This document shows positions 7,259 through 11,348 of a DNA stretch of 64,000 nucleotides, piece after piece. Below the pieces are notes generated by a model. That model did not search any database. It worked only from the letters and a program-made list of their open reading frames with translations, and had not been told where the DNA came from. This stretch comes from Bernardetia sp. OM2101 (GTDB lineage Bacteria; Bacteroidota; Bacteroidia; Cytophagales; Bernardetiaceae). Position numbers and translations under genes: made by a program. The DNA is taken from the NCBI RefSeq assembly GCF_042180575.1, contig NZ_CP170094.1, positions 1,848,604 through 1,912,603 of the forward strand, given 5' to 3'. Numbering within the stretch: position 1 is the first letter of the stretch; every line of letters begins with the position of its first letter.

Positions 7259-9790
7259 CTAAAAAGGAGGTTCATCATCAAAATCTACTGATTTTTTATT
7301 CTTCAAGTCATCATCAATCGGATTCATATTATTTCCTTTGCTTTGAAGTGTCGTAAAGCCATCATCTATTGGAGGCATAGAAGAAAGGTTGTCATTTGCA
7401 TTCGGAAAACCACTATCATAGCCTGTATTTCCAGGTGAAAAAGCTCCTTCATCTATATCTTGGAACTTCGTGTATTTACCTACAAACTGTAAAACAACCG
7501 TTTCCAAACTACCATGACGGTTTTTAGCGATGATTACTTCGGCTGTTCCCTGTGTAGGATTTCCCATTTCATCCTGTGTAATTTCATAATATTCTGGGCG
7601 ATAAAGGAAAATTACCATATCAGCATCTTGCTCAATGGAACCCGATTCTCTCAAATCGGAAAGCATTGGTTTTTTATCTCCTCCACGAGTTTCTACGGCA
7701 CGAGAAAGCTGAGAAAGTGCCATTACAGGGACATCCAATTCTTTAGCAAGTTGTTTTAAAGCTCTTGAAATACCTGCAATTTCTTGTTCACGGTTTCCTC
7801 CTCCTTTTCCTGCATCTCCAGACATAAGTTGCAAATAATCAATGACAATCATATCCAAATTATGCTGTGATTTTAGTCTTCTTGCTTTTGCACGAAGTTC
7901 TAGCATGGTAATGGCTGGCGTATCATCAATAAAAATTTTGGAAGCTGAAAGTTGTGTAGTTCTGTGAATAAGTTGCGCCCATTCGTGGTCTGCAATGCTT
8001 CCATTACGTAATTTCTGACTTTCCACTTCTGCTTCTGAGGACATCATACGAGTAAGTAGCTGCTCGGCTGACATCTCCAATGAAAAAATAGCTACACAAT
8101 GGTCGTATTTTACGGCTGCATTTGCCAAGGCTGAAAGAACGAAAGCTGTATTGTGAGTAAGCGTAAAATCATCCGTTACATACAAACTATCAGCACTATC
8201 AATTTTGATACAAGCAGCTTCTTTATTTCCAATAAAATCTATTTTGGTAATGTATTTGAAAAGTGGCGAAAGACTGTTGTTTGTAGTTGTGTGTGTTCCT
8301 GTTTCTAAGTCAGAAAGGCTTGCAGGTAATTCGAATTCTAGCTGAAAAAGGACTTCTCCTTTTTGATTTTTATTTTCTGTGCAAAACACAATTCCTCCCA
8401 ACGAACGAATCAAAAACATAAAATCATCTTTCATACGAGAAGAATCCGTTTGATACTTTCCTCGTATTTCGTTGTGAGCATCTTTAGCCAAGCGTCCCGA
8501 AAAAGCCATCATTCCCTCTAAAAGTTCGGTACGTTGTCTTACACTTGACCATAAATATTCTTGAGGAATAAATGGCTCTTCTGCAAAATTAACCATTTGT
8601 TTACCAAAAGCATGTTGTAGCTTTTGGTATGTTTCTGCCATTCTTTCGCTGGTTTTGAAGGAATTTTTATCAGCCAAAAGACTTGTTTGACCTTGATTAG
8701 ATACAAAAAGACCTACCAAATATCCACTTAAAGGTAATTTTTTTTCGTCCCATTGAATCGGCATAACCATTGGAATATAATGGTTGGGTTTGCCTGTTCC
8801 TGTACGAAGTGTATTTTTTATTTGAGCTAAAGAACGAACAGCTAATTTATTTTCAGATTGTTGAAAAGTAATCCATAAATGCTCCTCACAACATTCTGTA
8901 CTTGTTCCATCTTCAAAACTAACTTTATAAATTGATTTTTTGCCTTGTGGAAAAACGTCTTTTATCTTATAAAACCTCCCATCACTTCCTGCTACTAAAT
9001 CATCTTTTTGGACTTCTCCCATCATCTTCCAACCTGTTGGAGAAAGTAATTTTGCATCTAAAGGTTGTGCCTTTCCCATACCAGGGCGAGCTGCTAAGAT
9101 AATCAAATCCGAACGCTGCCAACCTGCTGTTATTCTATCCAAAGCCGTAAAACCACTCTGAATACCTGTAATTCCTGTTTTATTTTTTCGTTTTTCTTCT
9201 AAATCCTTGAGTGTGTTCAAATACACGGAAGCCATATCAGAGGTTCTTTTTCTGACATTATCTTCTGTAATTTCGAAAAGTTCGCTCTGTGTTTCATCTA
9301 AAAGTTCAAAAGCATCTGTTGTATCTTCAAAGGCATTTTGACGAACCGTCGAAGCGACACCAATCATTTTTCTTTTGATGGCACGTTCTACAATTTCATG
9401 AGCGTGATAAACTACATTTGAGGAAGAGCTTACTTCAGTAGTGAGTCGAACAAGAGAATATGCACCTCCAACAATCTCTAAATTTCCATTTTTTTCTAAT
9501 TGAGTACGAACAGTCAGCAGGTCAATCGGAGAACCTTTTGCAGAAAGTTCCAACATCGCTTGATAGATAAGTTGATGAGCATCTTTATAAAAACTATCTG
9601 CCTTCAAAATATCGACTACATCTTCAAAAGCCTTTCTTTCTAACAAAAGCGCCCCCAAAATAGCCTCTTCCAAAGGAATGGATTGAGGTGGAAGTTTGCC
9701 CATTTCATTCGATAAATCAGAAGCAAAGTTGTTTTGCTTTTTTTTATTGAAAGAACCTTTTTTAGAAAAATTATTGGTTTTGTTATCCAT
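7259..9790 (-). CDS. dnaB: Replicative DNA helicase DnaB with an intein inserted in the Walker A P-loop
   Basis: 843 aa. It has a DnaB N-terminal domain, and the P-loop ILAARPGMGK is interrupted before TAFVLSALANAAV...SLEMSAEQL...IDYLQLM...SQLSR...DLRESGSIEQDAD. The extein is about 536 aa without the insert. Confidence 0.9.
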   Translation of the reverse strand: MDNKTNNFSKKGSFNKKKQNNFASDLSNEMGKLPPQSIPLEEAILGALLLERKAFEDVVDILKADSFYKDAHQLIYQAMLELSAKGSPIDLLTVRTQLEKNGNLEIVGGAYSLVRLTTEVSSSSNVVYHAHEIVERAIKRKMIGVASTVRQNAFEDTTDAFELLDETQSELFEITEDNVRKRTSDMASVYLNTLKDLEEKRKNKTGITGIQSGFTALDRITAGWQRSDLIILAARPGMGKAQPLDAKLLSPTGWKMMGEVQKDDLVAGSDGRFYKIKDVFPQGKKSIYKVSFEDGTSTECCEEHLWITFQQSENKLAVRSLAQIKNTLRTGTGKPNHYIPMVMPIQWDEKKLPLSGYLVGLFVSNQGQTSLLADKNSFKTSERMAETYQKLQHAFGKQMVNFAEEPFIPQEYLWSSVRQRTELLEGMMAFSGRLAKDAHNEIRGKYQTDSSRMKDDFMFLIRSLGGIVFCTENKNQKGEVLFQLEFELPASLSDLETGTHTTTNNSLSPLFKYITKIDFIGNKEAACIKIDSADSLYVTDDFTLTHNTAFVLSALANAAVKYDHCVAIFSLEMSAEQLLTRMMSSEAEVESQKLRNGSIADHEWAQLIHRTTQLSASKIFIDDTPAITMLELRAKARRLKSQHNLDMIVIDYLQLMSGDAGKGGGNREQEIAGISRALKQLAKELDVPVMALSQLSRAVETRGGDKKPMLSDLRESGSIEQDADMVIFLYRPEYYEITQDEMGNPTQGTAEVIIAKNRHGSLETVVLQFVGKYTKFQDIDEGAFSPGNTGYDSGFPNANDNLSSMPPIDDGFTTLQSKGNNMNPIDDDLKNKKSVDFDDEPPF
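8150..9070 (-). other. DnaB intein (about 307 aa) with Ala1, a block-B Trp (CEEHLW), a block-F Cys and a C-terminal THN followed by +1 Thr. This suggests a class-3 intein; the LAGLIDADG-like motifs are degenerate.
   Basis: The insert runs from aa 241 (AQPLDAK...) to aa 547 (...DFTLTHN). The flanks GMGK|TAFVL reconstitute the canonical DnaB P-loop GMGKT. Confidence 0.75.
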
Positions 9791-9884
9791 TTTTTTGAAG
9801 ATGTATCTTTTATTAAACTCTATTTAAACTACTCACACTCTAAAGAGTATGCTACATTTTTTTTGGAAGTGTTTTTATACAAAT

Positions 9885-9915
9885 TTACTAAAAATAATAG
9901 CATAAACTAAAAAAA
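9885..9915 (-). promoter_or_regulatory. Conserved promoter-associated motif, copy 1, upstream of dnaB
   Basis: The minus strand reads TTTTTAGTTTATGCTATTATTTTTAGTAAATTTG. It contains a Bacteroidetes -7-like element TAAATTTG (TAnnTTTG). Confidence 0.5.
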
Positions 9916-10431: not shown

Positions 10432-10477
10432 ATATTTTCAAAATTATTTGAGTTGATTAGAAAACTTAAAAATAGAT

Positions 10478-11266: not shown

Positions 11267-11310
11267 TTTTTAAATTTTATTTGTTTTTTTAATCTTCGAA
11301 AGTCTTAACA

Positions 11311-11348
11311 AATTTACTGAAAATAATAGCATAAACTAAAAATTTTTG
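11311..11348 (-). promoter_or_regulatory. Conserved promoter-associated motif, copy 2, upstream of the 10478-11266 gene
   Basis: AAATTTACTGAAAATAATAGCATAAACTAAAAATTTTTGGGTTTT on the plus strand. The minus strand contains TAAATTTG. Confidence 0.5.

Follow-up and report, generated by a model that had tools for sequence, protein, structure and literature searches.

An intein with class 3 hallmarks and a probably inactive endonuclease domain in the DnaB P-loop of Bernardetia sp. OM2101

The dnaB gene of Bernardetia sp. OM2101 is interrupted by an in-frame insert of 307 codons, which parts the invariant lysine of the Walker A motif from the threonine that follows it. We consider it highly probable that we are dealing with a class 3 intein, inserted at the classic DnaB-b site, that splices by means of a block-F cysteine, carries an inactive endonuclease and is inherited vertically. 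Its boundaries are fixed by an intein-free allele, its residues are those of class 3, its sequence places it in a very large intein family, and the selection acting on it could be estimated from six orthologues.

Insertion site and splicing residues

The dnaB precursor is matched by TIGR00665 (E-value 1.3e-160) in a single stretch running across the insert (residues 33–780, model positions 1–434 of 435). Pfam DnaB and DnaB_C match as well, the latter broken into two stretches. The GMGK motif occupies residues 237–240 and the insert residues 241–547, immediately followed by Thr. The features of the gene are listed below, positions within the intein being marked i.

7259..9790, minus strand: dnaB precursor CDS (N-extein, intein and C-extein), 843 aa plus stop; ORF list, TIGR00665, Pfam
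9071..9790, minus strand: N-extein, aa 1–240, C-terminal end ILAARPGMGK (Walker A through the invariant Lys); profiles and ORF
8150..9070, minus strand: intein, class 3, 307 aa, AQPLD...FTLTHN; boundaries from the empty-site allele P0028 and the DnaB profile
8771..9070, minus strand: HINT N-terminal lobe, i1–100, blocks A and B; pLDDT 91–98, aligned to block B of Msm DnaBi1 and gp41-1
9068–9070, minus strand: block A, Ala1 codon
8873–8893, minus strand: block B, C60-C61-E-E-H64-L-W66; alignment with Msm DnaBi1 and gp41-1
8150..8266, minus strand: HINT C-terminal lobe, i269–307, blocks F and G; C287 alignments, omega 0.08
8210–8212, minus strand: block F Cys287; alignment pairs it with Msm DnaBi1 Cys118 and with Cys107, engineered into gp41-1_WCT
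8150–8158, minus strand: block G, Thr305-His306-Asn307; sequence
7259..8149, minus strand: C-extein, aa 548–843 plus stop, starting TAFVLSALANAAV...; the DnaB_C match continues from residue 548
8147–8149, minus strand: Thr+1 codon, the Walker A Thr and predicted acceptor nucleophile

The nearest intein-free relative, P0028, is a DnaB with 75% identity, and its insertion site reads ARPGMGKTAFVLSAL. Removal of the insert yields a DnaB of 536 aa in which ARPGMGK|TAFVLSAL is restored, identical to P0028 at the junction; the predicted ligated junction, GMGKTAFVLSAL, is thus the sequence of this relative, and the intein-free junction of dnaB is GGTATGGGAAAG|ACAGCTTTCGTT. Hence the insertion is in frame, its removal gives back an uninterrupted host protein, as expected of an intein, and it lies at GMGK|T between the Walker A Lys and Thr, that is, at the P-loop site, called site b of DnaB (PMC6195587) and described as the classic P-loop insertion (PMC5050341). 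The sequence-only reading had placed a 307-aa insert at 8150–9070 between GMGK and T, exactly to the base, and had suggested looking for an intein-free dnaB of a related species at the same site, which P0028 provides. Its boundary and its non-nucleophilic first residue hold too, since P0028 fixes the ends as K|A...N|T, with no Cys, Ser or Thr at position 1. The NCBI entry P0022, "replicative DNA helicase [Bernardetia sp. OM2101]", is 100% identical to the dnaB product. In the window, that is, the whole 64-kb stretch of DNA analysed, a six-frame HMM search yielded no second intein and no second dnaB, and inspection of the C-extein sequence revealed no second intein at RESG|S.

The insert has Ala1, His64 (B10), Trp66 (B12), Cys287 (F4), Thr305 (G5), His306, Asn307 and Thr+1, within the strings AQPLD (i1–5), ECCEEHLW (i59–66), AACIKID (i285–291) and LTHN (i304–307). 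Blocks A, B, F and G of the HINT fold are present, and the C-terminus reads ...THN|T. Class 3 inteins are defined by the WCT triplet, Trp B12, Cys F4 and Thr G5 (PMC2807308, PMC5050341), further residue definitions being drawn from PMC6195587. In the OM2101 insert W66 stands two residues past H64, C287 is in place, and T305 directly precedes H306-N307; residue 1 is a non-nucleophilic Ala in all six orthologues and in 114/114 family copies; and the +1 residue, Ser or Thr and rarely Cys in this class, is Thr. The catalytic splicing residues are all invariant in the six orthologues, A1, H64, W66 and C287 being among the invariant positions.

An intein with class 3 hallmarks at the DnaB P-loop, as the sequence-only reading had it, is therefore supported by alignments, profiles and family copies, and the Ala start, the block-B Trp, the block-F Cys, the LTHN end and the +1 Thr that it listed are all present. 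Its WCT assignment stands as a class 3 arrangement, but the T, which it had taken to be the +1 Thr, is by definition the G5 residue, here Thr305. The Thr+1 is a separate tendency of class 3, apart from the triplet, which the OM2101 insert also follows. The proposed comparison with intein block profiles gave a mixed outcome: scanned by itself against Pfam and NCBIfam, the insert retrieved no family, even at E<=1, whereas alignment to solved inteins displays blocks A, B, F and G. We ascribe the missing match to the sensitivity of the profiles and not to the absence of an intein. On the other hand, WCT grafted onto gp41-1 did not produce a splicing class 3 intein (PMC7664689), and hence the triplet by itself is insufficient proof of activity.

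The conserved promoter motif noted earlier upstream of dnaB and its neighbours does exist, but it is generic and unrelated to the intein.

9880–9887, minus strand: -7 promoter box TAAATTTG, lying some 90 nt before the dnaB start codon

This box matches TAnnTTTG, which we take to be the Bacteroidota -7 consensus. The latter occurs 163 times in the window (107 +/- 11 expected), and the same box precedes the next two minus-strand ORFs (10439–10446 and 11309–11316). Scanning the window for tRNAs and Rfam families turned up a single item, tRNA-Phe at 60777–60851.

The intein family and solved relatives

At E<=1e-30, the intein family comprises about 13,000 cluster representatives, and the insertion site is nearly always GK|T/S. 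Residue statistics were taken over 114 full-length family copies. Conservation is complete (114/114) for Ala1, H64, Cys F4, Thr G5 and Asn and nearly so for Trp (111/114). GK precedes the intein in 85 of these copies, and the +1 position is occupied by Thr in 87, by Ser in 24 and by Cys in three. Position B7 is Cys in 78/114, and both Cys60 and Cys61 are invariant in the orthologues. Relatives of the OM2101 intein are found in 443 phage records, residing in helicases, terminases and similar proteins, and PHROG families of intein-bearing phage ATPases match it (best 2.8e-22). The OM2101 intein is thus a real yet ordinary addition to a very large, phage-associated intein family. The literature searched contained nothing relevant on inteins in Bernardetia, Flexibacter or Cytophagales.

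A phmmer search against PDB returned the gp41-1 intein (6.9e-12) and, at 3.6e-5, the class 3 intein from M. smegmatis DnaB; with the PHROG matches and the empty-site allele, this speaks against a fortuitous likeness. The family profile matches gp41-1 at 1e-18 to 4e-23. Of the inteins with solved structures, the most closely related are gp41-1 and the class 3 inteins from the DnaB P-loop of Mycobacterium smegmatis and M. chimaera. The AF2 model of the intein has a mean pLDDT of 87.5 (91–98 in the HINT lobes). With Foldseek, the top match of the whole model is PI-SceI (TMq 0.72), about 30 solved inteins being matched, and the HINT part aligns with MchDnaB1 and Msm DnaBi1 at TMt 0.8–0.85. The predicted architecture is that of a HINT domain with a PI-SceI-like LAGLIDADG domain.

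Msm DnaBi1, M. leprae DnaBi and M. chimaera DnaB1 (DnaB site b; PDB 6bs8, 6rix) share with the OM2101 intein the host protein and the insertion point, the +1 residue that is at the same time the Mg-coordinating Ser/Thr of the P-loop, and Ala1, WCT, the B10 His and the terminal HN. Sequence identity to them is low, however (pairwise E 3.6e-5). Moreover, the mycobacterial ones are mini-inteins with a linker replacing the endonuclease, whereas the OM2101 intein retains a LAGLIDADG-derived domain of 168 residues; at position 7 of block B, the former have Asp and the latter has Cys, the +1 residue is Ser and Thr, and the host phylum is Actinobacteria and Bacteroidota, respectively. The DnaB intein of mycobacteriophage Bethlehem, the class 3 prototype, is likewise full-size and resides in a DnaB-type helicase, with WCT and Thr+1, but has Pro1 after Gln-1 instead of Ala1 after Lys-1. 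Its Cys F4 is the initiating nucleophile (PMC2807308).

No solved structure is closer in sequence to the OM2101 intein than gp41-1 (PDB 6qaz; WCT variant 6riz). The two have in common the EEHL(W/F) motif of block B and a C-terminus of the form ...(C/D)IEV...LTHN, with Thr G5. Unlike the OM2101 intein, gp41-1 belongs to class 1 (Cys1, Phe B12, Asp F4), is naturally split, comes from a cyanophage-like helicase, and lacks an endonuclease.

The endonuclease-like domain and its evolution

The central part of the intein corresponds to a homing endonuclease with the following features.

8267..8770, minus strand: endonuclease-like domain, i101–268, presumably catalytically dead; Foldseek match to PI-SceI, family profile alignment
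8696–8698, minus strand: N125 at the catalytic Asp position of motif 1, YLVGLFVSNQG; PI-SceI alignment
8573–8575, minus strand: P166 at the block D Lys position; PI-SceI alignment
8498–8500, minus strand: S191 at the catalytic Asp position of motif 2, LLEGMMAFSG (i182–192); PI-SceI alignment
within 8267..8770, minus strand: block H, FLIRSLGG, a non-catalytic helix

Descent from LAGLIDADG endonucleases follows from the family profile, whose matches include PI-PfuI, I-DmoI and, at 6e-14, PI-SceI (the VMA1 intein). With the last of these it aligns over blocks C, D, E and H, in particular at the PI-SceI motifs GDG, KNIP and SDG, where the OM2101 intein has N, P and S. The catalytic residues of PI-SceI are D218, D326 and K301. 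Whereas PI-SceI is a class 1 intein with an active nuclease, the OM2101 domain has N125, S191 and P166 and no strands in the first half-domain. Its acidic helix ends, a feature of active nucleases, are thus replaced. In the alignment with relatives, the first half-domain is shorter by about 33 residues, and the AF2 model has no beta strands in residues 116–176 (pLDDT 57–84 in this region), so the two-sheet, pseudo-dimeric alpha-beta-beta-alpha-beta-beta-alpha saddle is not formed in the model. The second half-domain is predicted to be complete, with four strands at pLDDT >90, and the LAGLIDADG helices are predicted at residues 116–124 and 177–191. Pfam LAGLIDADG_3 (PF14528) matches 9 of 13 relatives and does not match the OM2101 intein. 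Among the 114 relatives, both Asp are kept in 101 and the block-D Lys in 110, both Asp being absent in about three.

The claim that the endonuclease is probably inactive fits these changes: judging by sequence and model, the joint replacement of both Asp and of the block-D Lys, together with the deletion, would abolish cleavage. Two LAGLIDADG-like motifs had been proposed, VSNQG (i123–127) and FMFLIRSLGGIV. The former does belong to motif 1; the latter is the non-catalytic block H helix, which is conserved even in relatives with an intact endonuclease and aligns to ARSLG of PI-SceI (IRSLGG, i221–226). Thus FMFLIRSLGG is block H, and the true second LAGLIDADG motif is LLEGMMAFSG. Similarly, the description of the domain as decayed is right as to the catalytic loss and the deletion but not as to a drifting remnant, since the domain is predicted to be folded and has an omega of 0.17.

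In the six orthologues, omega of the endonuclease-like domain is 0.17 (bootstrap 0.13–0.22), compared to 0.04 in the exteins (0.034 in the N-extein), 0.19 in HINT-N and 0.08 in HINT-C, all values being approximate, as dS (0.5–1.2) is partly saturated. All indels in the domain are in frame, and its catalytic residues were lost prior to the divergence of the six genomes. The domain hence appears, from sequence and model, to be dead yet not drifting freely. In pairwise comparisons, dS of the intein correlates with that of the exteins (r = 0.92), which indicates long vertical inheritance and argues against recent homing. The same dnaB-intein arrangement is seen in eight related genomes or metagenome contigs.

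Other alleles occur in the clade. The sister genome L005 has a class 1 intein with an intact endonuclease at the identical codon, so that the clade alleles at this one dnaB codon are intein-free, class 3 and class 1. In 50-nt identity windows on both flanks of the L005 intein we found no co-conversion tract beyond the normal divergence of the clade. The dnaB gene of contig L001/L006 is broken into three ORFs, the class 3 intein being frameshifted and a second intein containing an in-frame stop. A naturally split intein was rejected here because these assemblies are error-prone: other genes in the assembly are split as well (DAHP synthase, FTHFS), and a sister MAG has a stop within a conserved extein segment (FLY*PEYY).

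Splicing mechanism, alternatives and implications

The splicing chemistry, and splicing in vivo as such, we infer by analogy with the Bethlehem, M. smegmatis and M. chimaera DnaB inteins. The 843-aa precursor would lack ATPase activity, because the insert places 307 residues between the Lys of Walker A and the Thr that coordinates Mg. Cys287 (F4), assisted by His64 (B10), Trp66 (B12) and Thr305 (G5), would attack the Lys240–Ala241 peptide bond, forming a thioester branched intermediate; the N-extein would then move onto the side chain of Thr+1, cyclisation of Asn307, aided by His306, would release the intein, and an O-to-N acyl shift would produce the native GMGKT P-loop and an active DnaB of 536 aa. 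The central domain would be a PI-SceI-type LAGLIDADG endonuclease devoid of both Asp, the block-D Lys and the beta-sheet of the first half-domain. Given these losses, the intein would be unable to home and would be inherited vertically in the Bernardetia clade. Most likely, the dead domain is kept in frame through selection against a misfolded or splicing-blocked precursor, which would ruin an essential protein.

It is quite unlikely that the endonuclease has stayed active, relying on non-canonical residues, and that the intein has remained mobile. The PI-SceI-like fold is retained, the domain is under purifying selection, and Asn replaces the first Asp in 7/114 relatives; however, N125, S191 and P166 are replaced jointly, a loss of both Asp being confined to some three relatives, the strands of half-domain 1 are among the absent residues, and the dS values of intein and extein agree. 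A different splicing route, be it a class 1 nucleophile at a misplaced boundary or direct +1 attack as in class 2 (KlbA type), seems highly improbable. Although class 2 KlbA inteins also begin with Ala1 (PMC2807308) and the closest solved relative, gp41-1, is of class 1, the empty-site allele sets the boundary and leaves no Cys, Ser or Thr at position 1, and class 2 features Cys+1 without WCT (PMC2807308), whereas here we observe Thr+1 and a full, invariant WCT. It is very improbable that the insert is a non-splicing relic, in a dead dnaB copy or somehow tolerated, with a second intact dnaB elsewhere supplying the helicase. The sole point in its favour is that the examined sequence amounts to 64 kb of a 5.9-Mb genome; the strong constraint on the exteins, the invariance of the splicing residues across six genomes, the incompatibility of a Walker A motif split between Lys and Thr with ATP hydrolysis (PMC6195587), and the presence of the arrangement in eight related genomes or metagenome contigs stand against it.

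There is a small chance that the endonuclease-like domain has been exapted, for binding of DNA or ssDNA or as a condition-dependent splicing gate timing replication. As an adjunct, the block-B Cys60/Cys61 might form a redox pair with Cys287, by analogy with Cys48–Cys118 in M. smegmatis DnaBi1; redox control does have a precedent in a DnaB P-loop class 3 intein (PMC6195587). The low omega despite a catalytic loss predating the split of the six genomes, the in-frame indels, the four confidently modelled strands of the second half-domain, and the conservation of Cys60/Cys61 and, in the family, of the B7 Cys are all consistent with this possibility. Yet omega of the HINT N-lobe is similar, selection against breaking an essential precursor suffices with no new function needed, the B7 Cys is family-wide and occurs in mobile copies too, and the DNA-binding sheet of the first half-domain is gone.

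The class 3 assignment brings no new mechanism, as biochemical and structural work on mycobacteria and their phages has already characterised class 3 DnaB P-loop inteins. It adds a previously unannotated example from Bacteroidota, where NCBI names the protein merely "replicative DNA helicase", and, as the insert escapes the intein models of Pfam and NCBIfam, it implies that standard profiles under-detect a very large family. The OM2101 intein represents a clean post-homing stage, being fixed, vertically inherited, located in an essential gene, and bearing a putatively dead endonuclease under purifying selection; it thus bears on the persistence of inteins after the loss of mobility. The intein-free, class 3 and class 1 alleles at one codon form a natural system for the study of intein turnover and replacement. 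Engineering might also draw on the OM2101 intein, as a full-length class 3 representative with Cys-x-x-His in block B. Finally, we hold it as an outside possibility that in Bernardetia the half-deleted, dead domain together with Cys60/Cys61 sets when DnaB becomes active, as a module for conditional splicing or DNA sensing; if true, an exapted domain would gate replication in Bernardetia instead of being passive baggage.

The dnaB insert and its boundaries

The dnaB precursor is the sole long ORF over the insert, and the insert coordinates proposed in the sequence-only reading proved exact. That reading is upheld overall, with four details corrected below.

Features of the dnaB region (window coordinates)
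7259..9790, minus strand: dnaB precursor ORF, 843 aa, N-terminus MDNKTNNF
Residues 237-240, minus strand: GMGK, directly before the insert
8150..9070, minus strand: intein insert, residues 241-547, 307 aa; the next residue is Thr
8873-8893, minus strand: block B, CCEEHLW, intein residues 60-66; H64 is B10, W66 is B12
9880-9887, minus strand: TAAATTTG box, ~90 nt 5' of the dnaB ATG
10439-10446 and 11309-11316, minus strand: TAnnTTTG boxes 5' of the next two minus-strand ORFs

In the precursor, the DnaB N-terminal domain occupies residues 34-134 and DnaB_C is split in two, the larger piece restarting at residue 548 (Pfam). The NCBIfam equivalog TIGR00665 covers model positions 1-434 of 435 as a single stretch across the insert (residues 33-780, E = 1.3e-160). 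Excision of the insert yields ...ILAARPGMGK|TAFVLSALANAAV..., that is, a canonical Walker A motif in a 536-aa DnaB. The database protein P0022, "replicative DNA helicase [Bernardetia sp. OM2101]", is 100% identical to the precursor, and its public annotation, replicative DNA helicase only, does not mention the intein.

With the spliced 536-aa DnaB as the query, the insert was found in six relatives (836-851 aa, 94-97% extein identity). The empty-site allele, P0028, is 537 aa long, 75% identical over the full length, and has the junction ...ILAARPGMGKTAFVLSALTNAAV...; remoter Cytophagales DnaBs (Fulvivirga, Algoriphagus, others) are ~60% identical and 510-540 aa long. The junction is thereby placed at K240|A241...N547|T548, the boundaries being confirmed by the empty site. 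The proposed reconstitution of GMGK|T is thus confirmed both by excision and by an intein-free dnaB in a relative. No other boundary placement gives Cys, Ser or Thr as residue 1.

TAnnTTTG is the Bacteroidota sigma-A -7 consensus, and TAAATTTG fits it. The promoter motif reported earlier is indeed present upstream of dnaB and its neighbours, but it is not specific to them: TAnnTTTG occurs 163 times in the window, a count not attained in any of 100 shuffles, vs an expectation of 107 +/- 11. TAAATTTG is a generic promoter element with no relation to the intein. The sole RNA gene detected in the window (ARAGORN, Rfam) is tRNA-Phe (GAA), at 60777-60851 on the minus strand.

Class 3 hallmarks and the intein family

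Class 3 inteins are defined by a non-nucleophilic residue 1 co-varying with Trp B12, Cys F4 and Thr G5, with +1 usually Ser or Thr (PMC2807308); the block positions are given again in PMC5050341. Residue 1 of the window intein is Ala, which is non-nucleophilic. In block F (AACIKID), C287 is aligned to Cys118 of Mycobacterium smegmatis (Msm) DnaBi1 and to the engineered Cys107 of gp41-1_WCT, and the C-terminus is T305-H306-N307, followed by Thr+1. The class 3 assignment is therefore supported by sequence, Ala1, W66, C287, T305 and Thr+1 all being present. The WCT triplet claimed earlier is complete, but its T is Thr305 at G5 rather than the +1 Thr; as both are present, the conclusion is unaffected. 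The insertion point is the one known as DnaB site b; its +1 residue doubles as the Mg-coordinating P-loop residue (PMC6195587). It also corresponds to the "classic P-loop intein insertion", which separates the invariant Lys from the Thr (PMC5050341). Judged by sequence and structural model, the element belongs to the class 3 P-loop inteins and occupies their known DnaB-b site, and we infer its splicing chemistry from characterised relatives.

Position B7 is Cys in the window intein; the usual residue is Thr, and Msm DnaBi1 has Asp. Cys occupies B7 in 78/114 family copies; among orthologues, neither Cys60 nor Cys61 varies. By analogy with Cys48-Cys118 of M. smegmatis DnaBi1, a Cys next to catalytic Cys287 might pair with it in a redox-sensitive disulfide.

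The insert alone has no Pfam-A or NCBIfam match, even at E<=1; the latter library presumably includes the TIGR models for both intein termini. Among PDB sequences (phmmer), the insert matches the gp41-1 intein at 6.9e-12 (6riz, WCT-engineered) and 4.7e-9 (6qaz, wild-type), the M. smegmatis class 3 DnaB intein at 3.6e-5 (6bs8) and the M. chimaera DnaB1 intein at ~2e-4 (6rix, 6riy). Among solved structures, this natural class 3 family has its closest relative in gp41-1, a split class 1 intein, which the family profile matches at 1e-18, more strongly than the genuine class 3 mycobacterial inteins. A convergent origin has been proposed for class 3 HINT domains (PMC7664689); the clear cross-class sequence homology to gp41-1 is hard to square with that proposal.

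The intein-only query retrieves orthologous DnaB inteins (79-87% identity) and full-length relatives, ~30% identical, in RecA/RadA-like, PhoH, AAA_24, AAA_30 and terminase-like P-loop ATPases, all of the form GK|AQPLD...HLW...C-x-C-I...THN|S/T. The family profile, built from 13 trimmed inteins (alignment A2) and scored against 1.84 billion cluster representatives, matches 35,956 proteins at E<=1e-3, of which 12,935 remain at E<=1e-30. In 114 full-length copies among the best 148 proteins, Ala1, His B10, Cys F4, Thr G5 and Asn G7 are each found in 114/114 and Trp B12 in 111/114; GK directly precedes the intein in 85/114, and the +1 position holds Thr (87 copies), Ser (24) or Cys (3). Phage genome records with relatives number 443, including 131 from mycobacteriophages, and PHROG families (phage helicase loaders, terminases, primases) are matched via intein-bearing members. 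Hence the family is very large, uniform and phage-associated, and the window intein is typical of it. Since ~13,000 representatives at E<=1e-30 contrast with no Pfam-A or NCBIfam match, standard profile libraries seem to pick up too few of its members.

The endonuclease-like domain and its inheritance

The AlphaFold2 model of the window intein (alignment A1) has mean pLDDT 87.5 and pTM 0.87. In the Foldseek search of the PDB, PI-SceI is first (E = 7e-16, TMq 0.72), followed by the Tli VMA intein, the Pho VMA intein and PI-PfuI; the HINT part alone gives TMt 0.8-0.85 with MchDnaB1 and Msm DnaBi1. The family profile matches the PI-SceI endonuclease domain at 6e-14, the family motifs yLLGlLLGDG, kFIP and LLrGLlDtDG falling on YLLGLWIGDG, KNIP and FLAGLIDSDG, which we take to hold catalytic D218, K301 and D326. 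Both Asp are kept in 101/114 family copies and Lys in 110/114. The window intein has YLVGLFVSNQG, PFIP and LLEGMMAFSG at these places, that is, N125, P166 and S191. LAGLIDADG_3 (Pfam) matches 9 of the 13 aligned relatives; it matches neither the window intein nor its orthologue. Between its two LAGLIDADG helices, the window intein has ~33 residues fewer than relatives do; residues 116-176 are modelled as helices only, at a less certain pLDDT of 57-84, and the second half-domain retains its four strands. The substitutions and the shortening support the earlier claim of inactivity, and the endonuclease is almost certainly inactive, judged by sequence and model. The second LAGLIDADG-like motif of that reading, FMFLIRSLGGIV, is instead block H: it aligns to PI-SceI LARSLG and is kept in endonuclease-intact relatives. 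As N125, P166 and S191 are common to all orthologues, inactivation is older than their divergence.

Selection was assessed in a codon alignment of six orthologues: the window, L002 (Bernardetia sp.), L003 (Cytophagales MAG), L004 (Flexibacter sp.), L007 and L008.

Mean pairwise Nei-Gojobori omega (95% bootstrap over codons)
N-extein: 0.034 (0.023-0.049)
C-extein: 0.046
HINT N-lobe: 0.19 (0.125-0.306)
Endonuclease-like domain: 0.17 (0.126-0.221)
HINT C-lobe: 0.08 (0.032-0.194)

The domain had been called decayed. Its catalytic residues are indeed gone, but an omega of 0.17 and indels that are all multiples of three speak against decay. A selected function of the remnant's own would account for this constraint; it is, however, improbable, the HINT N-lobe having an equal omega, so that a separate function is unnecessary. 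Most simply, the intein would be fixed: it is seated in the P-loop of an enzyme that is essential and is open to loss solely by precise deletion, so that changes impairing folding or splicing would be selected against. Pairwise intein dS tracks N-extein dS (r = 0.92, magnitudes alike), which argues for co-descent with the gene rather than re-introduction.

Intein turnover in the clade

Two relatives carry other inteins.

dnaB loci of relatives
L005, 3001-5631: Cytophagales MAG MFD03250.bin.2.105, CAVRCG010000004.1
L006, 3001-6098 (same contig as L001:10001-13101): Cytophagales MAG MFD03250.bin.2.91

The L005 exteins are 95.7% identical to those of the window over 423 aligned residues. At the identical GMGK|T codon, L005 has an unrelated class 1 intein of 341 aa, with Cys1 (CMKKDTYIVMFDG...), C-terminus MTVTHN|T and intact LAGLIDADG motifs, FLGMWLGDGHS (LGDG) and LLAGLLDSDGHY (DSDG); its identity to the window intein is only 21%. 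The product, P0029 (764 aa, ended early by a stop), has precomputed Pfam matches to Hom_end, Hom_end_hint and LAGLIDADG_3. No co-conversion tract is detectable in the flanks of this intein. Thus, two intein classes occupy one site within one tight clade.

L006 has the same class 3 intein as the window and a class 1 mini-intein at RESG|SIEQD, DnaB site a (CLTGDTQI...VHNFVANDIIVHN); the site-a (RESG|S) intein is absent from the window dnaB. The L006 gene is broken: it contains both a frameshift and an in-frame stop. Natural split inteins are disfavoured here, since adjacent genes are also split, and the frameshifts and stops in both MAGs are probably assembly errors.

What is new is the Bacteroidota host lineage, unannotated in this respect, a full-size class 3 intein with an apparently dead but constrained endonuclease, and the occurrence together, in one clade, of dnaB alleles with a class 3 intein, with a class 1 intein and with none.
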